64,000 bases of DNA, from the IMG/VR virus record IMGVR_UViG_3300017917_002814, positions 73,413-137,412 of that record; one strand, 5' to 3'. Below the pieces are notes generated by a model. The model ran no database searches, was not told the DNA's origin, and worked only from the letters and a program-made list of their open reading frames with translations. Made by a program: the position numbers and the translations under genes. Each line of letters begins with the position of its first letter. The first letter of the stretch is position 1. Shown here piece by piece: positions 5,767 through 10,097 of the stretch. This DNA comes from a virus.

Positions 5767-6149
5767 GAGATTTCGGTCCTTCCGTTGCCTAAATCGTTAC
5801 GATCTACTCTTCTGGGTCTCGCATCAATGGGTTGATTGGCCTCCCATTGCTCATAGTTTTCATTTAAAATATTACGACATACACTTTGAAACCATCTATC
5901 TACTATTTCGGCATCAGTATCATCTTTTTTCTGCATAAAACCGGCTTTGACCAATTTGGCCACAAACAATTCATTCCAATCTAGTTCAAAAGAACCATTG
6001 CCAACATCATCAGGATCAAGTTCCACTGCCACAACACTGACATATGGTTCTCCTGCTTCTGTAGCCAATTCCTTAGCAGTTTTGTTTTTTGCTTTAGGCT
6101 TTGGTCGTTCTTCTTTTATTTCTGGTTTCTTTTTAAGCCAATCAAACAT
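5763..6149 (-). CDS. hypothetical phage protein
   Basis: start likely MFDWLKKK, overlapping the queE stop (TGATG). Confidence 0.75.
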   Translation of the reverse strand: MFDWLKKKPEIKEERPKPKAKNKTAKELATEAGEPYVSVVAVELDPDDVGNGSFELDWNELFVAKLVKAGFMQKKDDTDAEIVDRWFQSVCRNILNENYEQWEANQPIDARPRRVDRNDLGNGRTEIS

Positions 6150-6997
6150 CAGGTTCCCCATTCATTTTTAAATAACGGCACTTGCAATCGATCGCTATAT
6201 CTTAAACCATGTTTCATTGCCAGTAATGCCACTGTACGATTATTCAATGTGTAAACACTTTCTACGCCACCTACAGGCATTAGATAGACTGATCCATGAA
6301 ATCCAGCATTACGATATTGTTCCGTTGCTTTTAATGCGTCTTTGACATCTTCTTCGGTGGCTACTACAAATTTAAGATATGTATGGCCAATGGTTTGATA
6401 TTGACATACAATCTCTGGACGAATAGCCTCGGCCCATGACTCACCACTGGCCGGGAGTTTTGCGCTTACACTAAATGTCACTTCTCGAGCAAAATTGGGA
6501 CCAGGCATTTGCCATTGTAGCAAGTAATCTGCAAACTCATCAGATAACATTTGAGTGCCATTAGTTTCAAAAGTTATTTCTTTTAATCTTTTCATGCGAG
6601 GATGATTGAGTAAATCCTCATAACTGCGCTGCCAGCCTAGTAATGGTTCTCCACCGGTAATAACAAGATGTTCATCTTTCCACTTACCATGTGGCAATAT
6701 TTGCATAATCCGTTCTACAATCGCATCACTAGTAAGCATAGGACTTAGATCTTTGAATCTAGGATCCCATGACGCATAACTATCACAACCTGTGCTAACT
6801 AATGGAAGTTCTTCGTACCGACTGTATTTGGCAGGATCAACATTTTCTGCTTCTATGCTTAGATGTCCGCGAGGCATACCAAACCCTGCACACTTAAAGT
6901 TGCAACCAAATGTGCGAAGAAACACACTAGGAACACCCATGTATCTACCTTCGCCTTGTATTGAATAGAAGAGTTCTGCTACTTTGATTTTACTCAT
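6149..6997 (-). CDS. queE: 7-carboxy-7-deazaguanine synthase (radical SAM, QueE)
   Basis: FYSIQGEG, FLRTFGCNFKC, CDS, VITGGEPL, ETNGT and RLQ motifs; clustered with queD and folE. Confidence 0.9.
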   Translation of the reverse strand: MSKIKVAELFYSIQGEGRYMGVPSVFLRTFGCNFKCAGFGMPRGHLSIEAENVDPAKYSRYEELPLVSTGCDSYASWDPRFKDLSPMLTSDAIVERIMQILPHGKWKDEHLVITGGEPLLGWQRSYEDLLNHPRMKRLKEITFETNGTQMLSDEFADYLLQWQMPGPNFAREVTFSVSAKLPASGESWAEAIRPEIVCQYQTIGHTYLKFVVATEEDVKDALKATEQYRNAGFHGSVYLMPVGGVESVYTLNNRTVALLAMKHGLRYSDRLQVPLFKNEWGT

Positions 6998-7000
6998 AAT

Positions 7001-7171
7001 TTACCAATGTCGAATAATACCTGCCACGATGAACAGGTTTGTTAGAATGTATACTAGCACAATAGCGGTACGGATACAAGCAATTTTATTTGCTTCTGTA
7101 TCTGTAGTGCCTGATTTTTCTCCTAGTGCTTTGGCCCAAAGACGCCAAACGTTACGCAAATAAATCTTCAT
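7001..7171 (-). CDS. small membrane protein (WRLWAKALGEK type)
   Basis: my translation MKIYLRNVWRLWAKALGEKSG...AIVLVYILTNLFIVAGIIRHW, 56 aa, fills the queD-queE gap; below the ORF-track cutoff. Confidence 0.65.
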   Translation of the reverse strand: MKIYLRNVWRLWAKALGEKSGTTDTEANKIACIRTAIVLVYILTNLFIVAGIIRHW

Positions 7172-7655
7172 TCCATTCTCTATGGCCTTCGCGGAAAGCC
7201 ATATTGCTTTGTGTTTCTCTAACCTCTACTCGATAGCACCAAAGACGCTCTGCTTCACTTGGACCCCACATGTCTGGTATATACACACCATTCACATATT
7301 TGTACAACATGTCTGCTAGGCCTTCACAACCTAAGCGTGGTAGTACAACAATTTTAGCCATATTCTTTTCTTGTAGCAGTTTAAATGTTTCCATTTCTGG
7401 ATCGTCTTGCGCCACAATCAAAGTATGGTCAAATTGATCTTCTAAGATCTTCTTAAGTTCTTTGAGACCGCCGTAGTCGGCGGCCCAGTTACGCACATCT
7501 AAGTGATCTGTGCCAAAATAAAACTTCATCGAAAATGAATAACCGTGAATTAGATTGCAATGGCTGTCGGCACGCCATTGACGATATGCACAAGGAAATG
7601 CGTCGTGATACTCTTTGGTACTTGTATATTTGTAAACTCTTGTTGGGTAAGACAT
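7152..7655 (-). CDS. queD: 6-carboxytetrahydropterin synthase (QueD/PTPS-like)
   Basis: CxxxHG, DYGGLK, FDH, E-x-L-A and VxET T-fold motifs; gene context. Confidence 0.85.
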   Translation of the reverse strand: MSYPTRVYKYTSTKEYHDAFPCAYRQWRADSHCNLIHGYSFSMKFYFGTDHLDVRNWAADYGGLKELKKILEDQFDHTLIVAQDDPEMETFKLLQEKNMAKIVVLPRLGCEGLADMLYKYVNGVYIPDMWGPSEAERLWCYRVEVRETQSNMAFREGHREWNEDLFA

Positions 7656-7663
7656 GTTATTCT

Positions 7664-7730
7664 CCTATATTAAATTTTAACATAGGCTTGCAGAATTTGT
7701 AAAGCGGGATGAATGCCAAGAAAGGCCGCT
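7664..7730 (-). ncRNA. candidate cis-regulatory RNA (pseudoknot plus SD-sequestering hairpin) in the queD 5' UTR
   Basis: AGCGG/CCGCU stem; loop CUUGGCA can pair with downstream UGCAAG; 10-bp hairpin covers the AGG of the SD. Confidence 0.45.
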
Positions 7731-7740
7731 AATAGATTAT

Positions 7741-7748
7741 TATTTATA
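7741..7748 (-). promoter_or_regulatory. T4-type late promoter TATAAATA
   Basis: perfect match to the T4 late consensus, intergenic, upstream of the queD leader. Confidence 0.7.
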
Positions 7749-7750
7749 CT

Positions 7751-8299
7751 TTAATTTTCCCACCAAGATTCCCAAGGAAAAACCACCCAACAAGGATCTT
7801 CATTTTTGTTGATATTTTGCCCTATATAATCAACATTTTTAAACTGACTGGCTTCATTGTTTACAATTACAGCGAACCGTACATTGTTATTATAAATTAC
7901 GTTCCATGCCGGATGTTTGGGTAAACAACTGCTACGCCAGTCATTTTTGATCCATTCTAGTGTAGCACCTGAATCATTTATATCATCAACGATTAGAATT
8001 TTTTTACGATATGCCGGATCGGTGTCAGCATCACCTGATCCACGTTGGTCCTTAGGTACATAACCAAACGCATGTTCGGCCATCCAAAGATTACTTTCAC
8101 TTTCGTTACCATCGCGTAGACTTACTTTTAGTGTTTCACATGGGACATCAAAATAATGACTAATCATAGCAGCCGGAGTCAACCCACCTCGAGTAATACC
8201 TACCACATAGTCAGGACGCCAATCACTGTTAGCAATGTCTCTACATAGTCTATGCATTAAACCTTTGAATTCTTGGTCTGAGATTCTGATTTTTTTCAT
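7751..8299 (-). CDS. purine phosphoribosyltransferase (Gpt/Hpt-like, type I PRTase)
   Basis: VVGITRGG, ILIVDDINDSGAT PRPP-binding loop, WVVFPWE C-terminus. Confidence 0.85.
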   Translation of the reverse strand: MKKIRISDQEFKGLMHRLCRDIANSDWRPDYVVGITRGGLTPAAMISHYFDVPCETLKVSLRDGNESESNLWMAEHAFGYVPKDQRGSGDADTDPAYRKKILIVDDINDSGATLEWIKNDWRSSCLPKHPAWNVIYNNNVRFAVIVNNEASQFKNVDYIGQNINKNEDPCWVVFPWESWWEN

Positions 8300-8487
8300 T
8301 AGTCTCTTTCTGCCACAGTGGCTTCTTTGATAAGAGAAATCAACTCATCTAAATCTTTACATAAAATTTTAGCGGTTGCCCACTCGCTGCTTGAGTCTCT
8401 ACCACTGATTTCTAACATAAATCCATTGTCATACATATAAACTGTAAAGTTGTCGTTTACTTTTTCTAGTTTGTCATTTAGTTTCAT
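8299..8487 (-). CDS. hypothetical protein
   Basis: 62-aa coupled ORF. Confidence 0.7.
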   Translation of the reverse strand: MKLNDKLEKVNDNFTVYMYDNGFMLEISGRDSSSEWATAKILCKDLDELISLIKEATVAERD

Positions 8488-8708
8488 TTTAAACCTTTCT
8501 TTTTTTTGTCTTCCTGCATTCCTTGTGCTATCATTTTTTTAATAATCAACAGCACTCGACCTTTTTCTTTCTCCGTTAAAAATTTAACCAATACAAGTTT
8601 ATCATCATAACTTTTAGCACCATCTAAGAATTCTTCTGGTACTGTTATTTTTGGTTTTTTTGGTTTAAACTTTTTTAAATTTGCTTTTATGTCATCATCG
8701 TCGGACAT
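8484..8708 (-). CDS. hypothetical Lys-rich protein
   Basis: 74-aa coupled ORF. Confidence 0.65.
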   Translation of the reverse strand: MSDDDDIKANLKKFKPKKPKITVPEEFLDGAKSYDDKLVLVKFLTEKEKGRVLLIIKKMIAQGMQEDKKKKGLK

Positions 8709-9401: not shown

Positions 9402-10097
9402 TTATCTAGGTGCAAACTCTTGTTGCAATTTTACGTTGTCAAAAAACTCTTTCTTGGTTGCCGGGTCAGCTTTAAACGCTCCTTTTAACACGGTAGTCTG
9501 GGTGAGACTACTGTGTGCCATAATGCCCCTATTCTCGCAGCATCCATGTGTGGCCTGTATATAAACCGCCACATCTCTACTTCCAGTCGCAAACTCAATC
9601 TCCCTTGCAATGTCCATACAAAGCTCTTCCTGTAGTGTACCTCTCCTTGCACACCACTGAGCGATTCTTGTATACTTACTAAGGCCGATGAGTTTGGGAC
9701 CAGCAATGATGCCAATGTACGCCACGCCTGATACAGGTTGGTGATGATGACTGCAAACACTTTTAAGTTCTGAACGGACCACAAGCATCCCTTCGTACTT
9801 ACCGTCTGCATCATTCGGAAACGCAGTTGCGTTTGGTGTCGGATCATATCTACCTGCCATTAGTTCATTATAATACATTTTGGCAAGACGCCTCGCTGTG
9901 CCAATACTATTAGGATCTGTTGCTCTATCAATCAACAATGTGTCTAGTACTTGTTCAAACGCCTCAGTGGCTTCGTCGATCAATTGATCTTTGTCCTCAT
10001 CCGTTACATAACTGCTGATGTTGTCACCGGCCCAGTATCTTTTGCCGTCGGCATGCATTTGCTCTCGAATTCTATCGCTTACTCGTGTGTATTTCAT
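9402..10097 (-). CDS. folE: GTP cyclohydrolase I
   Basis: CSHHH, GLSKY, LQEEL and HGCCENRG motifs. Confidence 0.95.
   Translation of the reverse strand: MKYTRVSDRIREQMHADGKRYWAGDNISSYVTDEDKDQLIDEATEAFEQVLDTLLIDRATDPNSIGTARRLAKMYYNELMAGRYDPTPNATAFPNDADGKYEGMLVVRSELKSVCSHHHQPVSGVAYIGIIAGPKLIGLSKYTRIAQWCARRGTLQEELCMDIAREIEFATGSRDVAVYIQATHGCCENRGIMAHSSLTQTTVLKGAFKADPATKKEFFDNVKLQQEFAPR

Follow-up and report, generated by a model that had tools for sequence, protein, structure and literature searches.

The DNA considered here, referred to throughout as the window, is a stretch of 64 kb from an uncultured virus, a giant phage (bases 73413-137412 of the 137,412-base record IMGVR_UViG_3300017917_002814 in IMG/VR, CheckV completeness 38%). 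On its minus strand lies the gene of a QueD-like T-fold enzyme of the PTPS family (167 amino acids, 7152-7655), preceded by a leader of 85 nucleotides (nt) and followed further down by the gene of a QueE-like radical-SAM protein. What is such a leader doing in front of a biosynthetic gene? Comparison with the leaders of related phages indicates that it carries an H-type pseudoknot of roughly 46 nt, built around two helices (P1 and P2) and three connecting segments (L1, L2 and L3). The reading favoured here, to which we give a probability of about 0.6, is that of an uncatalogued phage pseudoknot aptamer which switches translation of the queD-like gene on.

Layout of the leader

All elements of the leader are read on the minus strand. 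The 5' strand of P1, AGCGG (7730-7726), pairs with CCGCT (7707-7703) and closes an 18-nt loop, CCTTTCTTGGCATTCATC. Inside this loop lie L1 (CCTTTCTT, 7725-7718), whose length varies among homologues from about 4 to 10 nt, then the 5' strand of P2 (GGCATTCA, 7717-7710), which includes an invariant T at 7712, and finally L2 (TC, 7709-7708), the C of which adjoins the 3' strand of P1. The A-rich tail L3 (TTACAAATTC, 7702-7693) connects P1 to the 3' strand of P2 (TGCAAGCC, 7692-7685), which pairs back into the loop, includes an invariant C at 7690 and has its last CC in common with a second structure, the hairpin that sequesters the Shine–Dalgarno sequence. In that hairpin CCTATGTTAA (7686-7677) and TTAATATAGG (7673-7664) form 10 base pairs around a 3-nt loop; the Shine–Dalgarno sequence itself, AGGAGA (7666-7661), stands 5 nt upstream of the ATG (7655-7653). 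The minimum free energy structure computed for the leader with RNAfold includes the P1 stem and the Shine–Dalgarno hairpin, and lengthens the latter by pairing ATTCT (7696-7692), a stretch running from the end of L3 into the first base of P2, with AGAAT (7663-7659).

An earlier note on this DNA, written from the letters alone, had described these leader elements, and every one of them is found where it was placed. Its 5-base-pair P1 is present and backed by covariation, and its 10-base-pair hairpin hiding part of the Shine–Dalgarno sequence is present and predicted by RNAfold. More generally, the proposal of an H-type pseudoknot with a 5-base-pair P1 and an A-rich tail at the head of a queD(-queE) message is borne out, as the arrangement is conserved with covariation. 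The exact pairing of P2 had to be revised. TGCAAG(CC) starts at 7692, right after the tail TTACAAATTC, and the note had paired TGCAAG with CTT(G)GCA of the loop. This register is physically possible, but its core pairs never covary: 75.6% of cells are paired, and pairs 19-48, 21-47 and 22-46 never change on both sides. It pairs well only because GC(A) and TGC are conserved. In the conserved register 6 of the 8 P2 positions pair in the window, leaving unpaired an A·A and a U·C, the latter family-wide. The local hairpin of the single-sequence fold, GYC with GRC, is 82.8% paired, its middle pair being unpaired in 30 of 116 sequences, and may be a minor alternative.

Folding of the window's leader by itself says little, since its energy of -16.5 kcal/mol (z -1.45) is equalled or bettered by 21 of 200 shuffles. 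As this single-sequence fold is no better than chance, the case rests on comparison with related sequences.

Conservation and covariation

How widely is the element kept? IMG/VR holds at least 590 relatives of the window's QueD-like protein. Among the best 80 loci kept, a simple motif search located the leader element in 78, the other two being without upstream sequence. A 23-letter degenerate core pattern returned at least 120 stretches, and 119 loci were read: 104 have a perfect P1 complement and 3 more have one with a defect at one position, while the remaining 12 were set aside as chance matches without other features of the motif. From this material 116 distinct aptamers were aligned with MAFFT and fitted to no structure (alignment A1); the filter demanded P1 complementarity, and real instances with one mismatch or wobble (L090, L132 and L180) were left out. 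Two further sets were collected by protein similarity alone, from QueD-like subfamilies about 35-40% identical to the window's, and a covariance model built from the first alignment (R1) was used to search the protein-collected sets. R1 located the motif in 79 of 81 protein-collected sources, with 1 additional match cut by a contig end, and in 73 of 80 and 78 of 80 loci of the two other QueD-like subfamilies. The two misses of the latter subfamily have only about 32 nt upstream of the gene, in which the 3' part of the motif is still recognisable. Among the seven misses of the former, one is truncated, five have a gene abutting the upstream gene or a short unrelated leader, and the seventh (L402) is described below. 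In total, 187 distinct aptamer sequences were gathered in 334 loci, some of these loci being the same contig fetched twice.

Covariation upstream of homologous phage queD genes had been proposed as the way to check the pseudoknot, and the motif turns out to be conserved and covarying in hundreds of phage contigs. In A1 the pseudoknot model has 88.0% of cells paired, compared with 78.6% for shuffles and 32-42% for controls in which the strands were slid. The covariation score is 0.203 for the model, 0.067 for the shuffles (none of 500 reaches the model) and 0.019-0.064 for the slid controls. In P2, both sides change at eight of the nine pairs in A1 and at each of the nine in at least one alignment; pair 24-49 goes through all four Watson–Crick types (UA in 47 sequences, AU in 20, CG in 11 and GC in 11). 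The protein-collected alignments behave likewise, with a score of 0.168 against 0.058 for shuffles in A2 (0 of 500), and in A3 with 94.5% of cells paired, a score of 0.331 against 0.111 (0 of 500) and two-sided changes in 10 of the 14 pairs. In the sets unfiltered for pairing, P1 pairs in 100% of the cells of A2 (59 distinct sequences) and in 99.6% of those of A3 (51 distinct). Its pairs 1, 2 and 3 covary (AT/TA, GC/CG/TA and CG/AT/TA, respectively), the counts in A2 and A3 being AU 42 and UA 8 for pair 1, GC 56 and CG 3 for pair 2, and CG 27, AU 15 and UA 9 for pair 3. The two pairs adjoining the junction covary as well, from AU to GC in A2 and from CG to AU in A3. P2 measures 7-10 positions across the family. 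A test free of any alignment gave the same answer: across 25 strand types, loops paired with their own 3' strand reach a mean of -6.8 kcal/mol, and with permuted strands -5.2 kcal/mol (0 of 5000). A divergent variant (L389, L387 and L405) has its junction C-G replaced by A-T and its core GGC/GCC replaced by GGT/ACC, with the internal U·C kept, and amounts to a natural compensatory mutant.

The helices surround bases that hardly change, counted in 139 distinct sequences of the three protein-collected sets (A2, A3 and A4). The T inside the 5' strand of P2 is present in 139 of 139 and the C opposite in 138. The C of L2 is found in all 139, and the base before it is T in 114. The second base of L1 is C wherever the base is present (138 of 138), and five positions of L3 never vary (139 of 139), namely 3, 5, 7 (A), 9 (T) and 10 (C). 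Such a pattern, with helices that covary around bases that stay fixed, is typical of a tertiary fold or a binding pocket.

The motif is also strict in its number and company. R1 gives a single copy in the window's 137-kb record, at 69.8 bits, with the next best match at 10.9 bits, and exactly one copy in each of five large records (286-365 kb), three of which are 98-100% complete (CheckV). Of 182 loci, 181 have a QueD-like gene on the same strand downstream, and the protein match begins at a median distance of 87 nt from the start of P1. Where at least 2 kb of downstream sequence is present, 78 of 159 loci also have a QueE homologue there; for FolE the figures are 77 of 140 loci with the gene in the 4 kb upstream and 1 with it downstream. 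In a few loci (L030, L129, L136, L142 and L173) another gene lies between the motif and queD, so in those phages the motif heads a longer operon. Judged by eye, without a family-library scan, two of the inserted open reading frames (276 and 240 amino acids) are methyltransferase-like and one (113 amino acids) is cupin-like; another has 243 amino acids, and in L173 a short frame is followed by one of 282.

The five cultured phages with the nearest QueD-like genes have these genes abutting the upstream gene, the model scores 6.8 bits at best in them, and no isolate carrying the motif was found among the five. A blastn 'distant' search with the leader matched 35 records, with a query coverage of 39% at most, and the whole aptamer is covered in none of the 30 that were listed. 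A pattern scan of 185,579 bacterial and archaeal species genomes gave no convincing instance among the first 120 matches listed, 4 of which have a P1 complement nearby and none of which resembles the motif. As far as sampled, this RNA family is confined to uncultured phages.

Proposed switching of translation

How would a knot at the start of the leader reach the ribosome-binding site? In each leader the 3' strand of P2 and the nucleotides just after it are complementary to the initiation region of that leader. In the window's class (class 1), (G)CCTATG pairs with CATAGG of the Shine–Dalgarno region; a second, start-codon class pairs TGTCATC with GATGGCA over the start codon. Different words take this place in other leaders: AAGTCATC with GATGACTT, TGCCATTG with CAATGGCA, CCATAAC with GTTATGG, and ATGTCT with AGACAT in the Shine–Dalgarno sequence. 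Over 25 strand types the cognate duplexes have a mean of -9.8 kcal/mol, versus -7.3 kcal/mol when partners are permuted (0 of 5000), and without the window's class the 14 remaining types still give -10.0 versus -7.9 kcal/mol (0 of 5000). For 27 leaders of the start-codon class RNAalifold predicts the sequestering helix and nothing else, all 6 of its pairs being kept in at least 25 of the 27. The non-coding base just before the ATG covaries with its partner across classes (C-G, T-A, A-T).

The effect of the knot on this helix was modelled by withdrawing the pseudoknot bases from pairing. The initiation region then becomes more open in 119 of 133 distinct leaders, its mean unpaired probability rising from 0.46 to 0.61 (from 0.40 to 0.56 in the window). 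The predicted folding energy weakens from a range of -7.8 to -18.2 kcal/mol to one of -0.7 to -6.3 kcal/mol, the window's leader going from -16.1 to -2.4 kcal/mol. Several leader classes have a TGCTA box after P2.

These pairings suggest a simple mechanism. The knot would form first, at the 5' end of the transcript. When locked, presumably by a ligand, it would withhold the 3' strand of P2 from the sequestering helix; in the absence of that helix the Shine–Dalgarno sequence and the start codon would be open, and the QueD-like enzyme (and QueE) would be translated. When the knot is unlocked, strand exchange would close the ribosome-binding site. Because the 3' strand of P2 belongs to the helix that covers the ribosome-binding site or start codon, the simplest logic is that ligand means ON. 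The earlier note had implied repression by the end product, that is an OFF switch, and on this point it is not followed, as the strand in question is half of the sequestering helix. The locus without the motif mentioned above, L402 (1070-1215), has a TTGACT-N17-TACTAT promoter in place of both the aptamer and the sequestering strand, and keeps the distal leader and the Shine–Dalgarno sequence of the start-codon class. Joint loss of aptamer and sequestering strand is compatible with the ON model; it is a single case.

How firmly can each layer be held? That the leader is a conserved, pseudoknotted regulator of translation acting in cis is very probable. That it is a riboswitch for a small molecule is likely on the pattern of conservation, and the complete ON-switch statement is held at the lower probability given at the outset. 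Several points weigh against it. The complete pairing of P1 in A1 (100%) is partly by construction, given the complementarity filter, and A2 to A4 were aligned by a model containing P2 and are biased towards it, a bias of which A1 is free. In the start-codon class the helix changes on one side only, by wobble, none of its 6 pairs being changed on both sides, and part of the complementarity lies in the coding ATG-GCA. In the window's class the overlap of P2 with the Shine–Dalgarno hairpin is only 2-3 bases, and in the two largest groups of that class the start codon is less open on withdrawal of the knot bases, going from 0.54 to 0.36 and from 0.57 to 0.19. An ON switch on a biosynthetic gene would also be unusual, as every known preQ1 riboswitch is an OFF switch (PMC11625349), and the small-molecule nature of the ligand is suggested solely by the conservation pattern.

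Alternative readings

The lower openness of the start codon in the window's class arises because a second, weaker hairpin, TATGYT/ARCATG, can form there, and so the ON direction is not uniform in the model. In the window it pairs 7684-7679 with 7658-7653, and it occupies the same place in class-1 homologues, where in many cases a C pairs with a G at the position at which the window has T with A; it may represent a third switch state. Could the aptamer then work in the opposite sense? An end product, a 7-deazaguanine such as 7-carboxy-7-deazaguanine (CDG) or 7-deazaguanine itself, would bind, and the knot plus the downstream hairpin would block initiation. A position before the first committed enzyme with folE left outside control is the usual feedback layout, the architecture resembles that of preQ1-I, and the start-codon hairpin just described does lower modelled accessibility in the window's class when the knot bases are withdrawn. 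However, this hairpin is weak (-2.4 to -6.3 kcal/mol) and its partner context, AGCATG or AACATG, occurs in a minority of class-1 leaders only. In the other classes the 3' strand of P2 directly covers the start codon or the Shine–Dalgarno sequence, where the knot can only free it, and most leaders open overall on withdrawal, as given above. Feedback repression through this aptamer is therefore considered distinctly unlikely. Another possibility is a translational operator bound by a phage protein, for instance the QueD-like enzyme binding its own message or a specialised repressor or activator, with no direct sensing of a metabolite. In T4-like phages, leader pseudoknots and RegA-type operators take part in protein-mediated translational control, which provides a precedent; a conserved structure with invariant loop bases fits a protein site too, and nothing computed here separates a small-molecule from a protein effector. 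Against an operator of this kind, at least three QueD-like subfamilies, 35-40% identical to each other, retain the motif, as do phages of very different genome sizes, there is no conserved candidate partner gene (neighbours vary, the phosphoribosyltransferase gene next to the window's leader having a homologue upstream of the motif in 34 of 140 loci), and the size, fold and UC specificity motif are those described for a known metabolite aptamer controlling the same kind of gene. A protein operator is thus rated as unlikely. The element might, finally, respond to nothing: a knot protecting the 5' end from decay, a ribosome standby site or enhancer, or a thermometer, with the alternative helix setting a fixed level of translation. 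A pseudoknot at the 5' end can make an RNA more stable, and this one lies within a few nucleotides of the inferred transcript start. Such a role leaves unexplained the strict association with one enzyme gene, the single copy in genomes of 286-365 kb, the invariant unpaired junction bases and the mutually exclusive helix kept in 25 strand types, and it appears to be the least likely of these alternatives.

Promoter and genomic setting

A promoter-like box, TATAAATA (7748-7741, minus strand), lies 10 nt upstream of P1. The earlier note had called it a late promoter. A T4-type late promoter would have this word at -10 and use it repeatedly before late genes, in a phage with a gp55-type sigma factor. 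The word is there; it does not by itself prove the label 'late', the box being found 2 times in the 64-kb window with 6.7 expected. TAAATA is likewise rarer than expected in the window (59 found, 83 expected), and both may be scarce because promoter-like words are avoided outside promoters. In a set of 149 unique sequences from upstream of P1, TAA[AG]TA ends 4-12 nt before P1 96 times, the other 9-nt bins holding 0-16, and some homologues have a TTGACA-N17-TATAAT promoter at the same place. This positional conservation supports a promoter of some kind, from which the transcript would probably start a few bases before P1. A sigma-70 scan gave 3 promoter-like sites, with 2.3 expected, and a terminator scan gave none, so that none separates the upstream gene from the leader.

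Which genes surround the leader? In gene order on the minus strand, the first is that of GTP cyclohydrolase I (folE, 9402-10097), followed by the gene of a Bax1-I-type membrane protein, two small open reading frames and the gene of a type I phosphoribosyltransferase (7751-8299). The latter is directly upstream of the leader, 95 nt from the queD-like gene, and has a weak likeness to xanthine/hypoxanthine phosphoribosyltransferases (37 bits, cut-off 138). Downstream of the queD-like gene come a 56-codon open reading frame and the QueE-like radical-SAM gene (6149-6997), whose product matches Pfam Radical_SAM, with QueE equivalog matches that are sub-threshold, and falls under every NCBIfam equivalog cut-off. 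Lying downstream on the same strand, it is probably co-regulated with the queD-like gene, their co-transcription being deduced from this arrangement. Pfam assigned an epimerase, a DUF6071 protein and a sulfotransferase among ten neighbouring genes and found no DpdA or TGT in them; an NCBIfam scan of a neighbouring protein of 526 amino acids gave no match.

How far is the regulated gene a queD? The identification made in the earlier note stands at the level of the family, the protein scoring 56.5 bits with Pfam PF01242 (PTPS; cut-off 22.4), and does not extend to the enzyme, as it scores 34.7 bits with the QueD equivalog TIGR03367 of NCBIfam (cut-off 89.25). PMC10516641 gives the QueD motif as CxxxHGH. 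All four QueD-like subfamilies associated with the motif (compared through the window's 7152-7655, L114:2245-2781, L197:931-1380 and L200:280-750, all atypical members) read HGY where QueD reads HGH, and they score 33.8-35.9 bits with TIGR03367 while passing the Pfam PTPS cut-off. The label 'queD' would thus be valid at family level only, and the enzyme may catalyse a different T-fold reaction. Pfam searches of the window's own 137-kb record detected one PTPS gene (PF01242) and neither QueC nor TGT, remote homologues, DpdA forms among them, being possible, and the five relatives of 286-365 kb that carry the motif gave no TGT and, for QueC, a single partial QueC-like match of 26 bits. The pathway may have a product other than preQ0 or preQ1.

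A megablast search with 4.2 kb of the region against cultured phages gave no match, and the nearest QueD-like protein among 50,697 phage records is 52.5% identical. RNA-library contigs matching the stretch are those of relatives only, none at least 95% alike and most less than 90%; they come from small shares of four runs, of which two are true metatranscriptomes, and these covered parts of coding regions and not the leader.

Candidate ligands, pathway and significance

What could the knot bind? The L2 cytosine and a junction like that of preQ1-I suggest, by analogy, a ligand with a guanine-like face. Candidates are a 7-deazapurine, a pterin of the pathway or a purine. As folE lies upstream, outside the control of the motif, the FolE product is among the candidates, and an ON switch placed after folE would fit the sensing of that product or of another intermediate, a deazapurine or a purine being no less plausible. 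A more specific proposal joins these threads, tentatively and with the odds somewhat against it. The RNA would be a phage-only offshoot of preQ1-I with a new ligand, a substrate or intermediate of the pathway, and with inverted logic, turning on a non-canonical deazapurine or pterin pathway that feeds DNA hypermodification in the phage. In it the ligand could be dihydroneopterin triphosphate (the FolE product), 6-carboxytetrahydropterin (CPH4), CDG, 7-deazaguanine or free guanine; the pathway would consist of the QueD-like enzyme, with HGY for HGH, and the QueE-like protein, with no QueC or TGT detectable by Pfam; and the invariant U·C in P2 would form part of an enlarged binding pocket.

On present sequence evidence the element is a new RNA family, a pseudoknot riboswitch candidate that matches no family catalogued in Rfam 15. 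We know of few riboswitch classes carried mainly by viruses and of none for phage DNA-hypermodification pathways. A full-text literature search returned, in its listings and abstracts, no report of a riboswitch for such pathways and no description of an element like this one. The depth of covariation, with 187 distinct sequences and three independently collected sets, is what is usually demanded before bench work, and the RNA is very small and easily synthesised, with a wiring that is clear and testable. Binding of a 7-deazapurine or pterin would give the preQ1-I fold a new ligand or specificity. If true, the favoured ON reading would make this the first ON member of a preQ1-I-type family and would reveal how phages time the provision of modified bases. 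The pathway in question, with QueD-like and QueE-like enzymes and no QueC, is common in giant aquatic phages, and its product would become easier to name. The RNA could also furnish synthetic biology with a compact ON-switch part.

Comparison with known RNA families

Among catalogued RNAs, preQ1-I (RF00522) is the closest in appearance. Is the leader simply a member of it? A scan of Rfam 15 had been suggested along with the observation that the leader resembles preQ1-I without matching its consensus, and the scan agrees: at E<=10, over window positions 7000-8500 (1.5 kb) and 7650-7750 (101 nt), RF00522 is not listed. The weak matches listed at that threshold are far under their gathering scores; some fall outside the aptamer, and others, such as DdR6 (14.3 bits, gathering score 90) and the S15 leader (10.0 bits, 39.5), extend across it with no meaningful score. 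The most preQ1-I-like variant (L055, 60-170) gave no preQ1 match at E<=10, and 20 diverse loci (105 kb) gave no match at gathering scores.

The preQ1-I class, as PMC11625349 describes it, folds into an H-type pseudoknot in which a conserved G-C pair caps the canonical P1 and an A-rich L3 lies in the minor groove of P1. Its specificity cytosine stands just before the 3' strand of P1, as UC in type I and AC in types II and III, and a short P2 of about four steps buries Shine–Dalgarno bases or a terminator platform, turning the gene OFF; every known preQ1 riboswitch is an OFF switch (PMC11625349). The leader shares with it the H-type pseudoknot of about 35-50 nt, the 5-base-pair P1 topped by a G-C pair, the A-rich L3 along P1, the UC immediately before the 3' strand of P1 as in type I (PMC11625349), and the place ahead of genes of the queuosine/7-deazaguanine pathway. 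It also differs in several ways. P2 is 7-10 positions long, compared with about 4 steps in preQ1-I, and contains the invariant U·C; L1 spans about 4-10 nt and L2 just 2-3 nt; the 5' strand of P1 carries no UU at its top; and the Shine–Dalgarno sequence lies outside P2, 19 nt downstream of it in the window. The 3' strand of P2 is instead the strand that pairs with the initiation region, with a predicted logic of ON versus OFF, and the motif is found only in phage contigs. The window's record and the five large ones show no Pfam QueC or TGT beyond the partial match given above. The leader RNA is a relative of preQ1-I in its features; membership fails on the covariance model, on P2 and on the predicted logic.

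The other preQ1 classes are further away. Like preQ1-II (RF01054) and preQ1-III, the leader has a pseudoknotted aptamer on que-related genes with control of translation. Unlike the leader motif, both bury the Shine–Dalgarno sequence in the aptamer or place it near, and are OFF switches (PMC11625349). The only match to preQ1-II reaches 14.6 bits, with a gathering score of 47, and aligns just the Shine–Dalgarno/ATG flank.

In its wiring the proposed switch is nearer to RNAs of other folds. The adenine 'add' riboswitch is a translational ON switch in which the sequestering helix competes with the aptamer, and in both cases a stabilised aptamer pairing would withhold the strand covering the Shine–Dalgarno sequence or start codon; 'add' is built on a three-way junction, whereas the leader forms an H-type pseudoknot, and its ligand and genes are unrelated. 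From the phage side, the leader of T4 gene 32 has a small H-type pseudoknot at the 5' end of the mRNA that serves protein-mediated autoregulation of a DNA-binding protein. The position at the 5' end of a phage mRNA, the fold and the translational control are alike; no relationship of sequence or gene was seen. The metabolic enzyme that the motif accompanies, and a junction like that of preQ1-I, speak rather for a metabolite as the effector. The leader also shows what riboswitches in general have in common: covarying helices, invariant junction bases, a place in cis to a metabolically related gene and, in silico, an expression-platform pairing that excludes the pairing of the aptamer.

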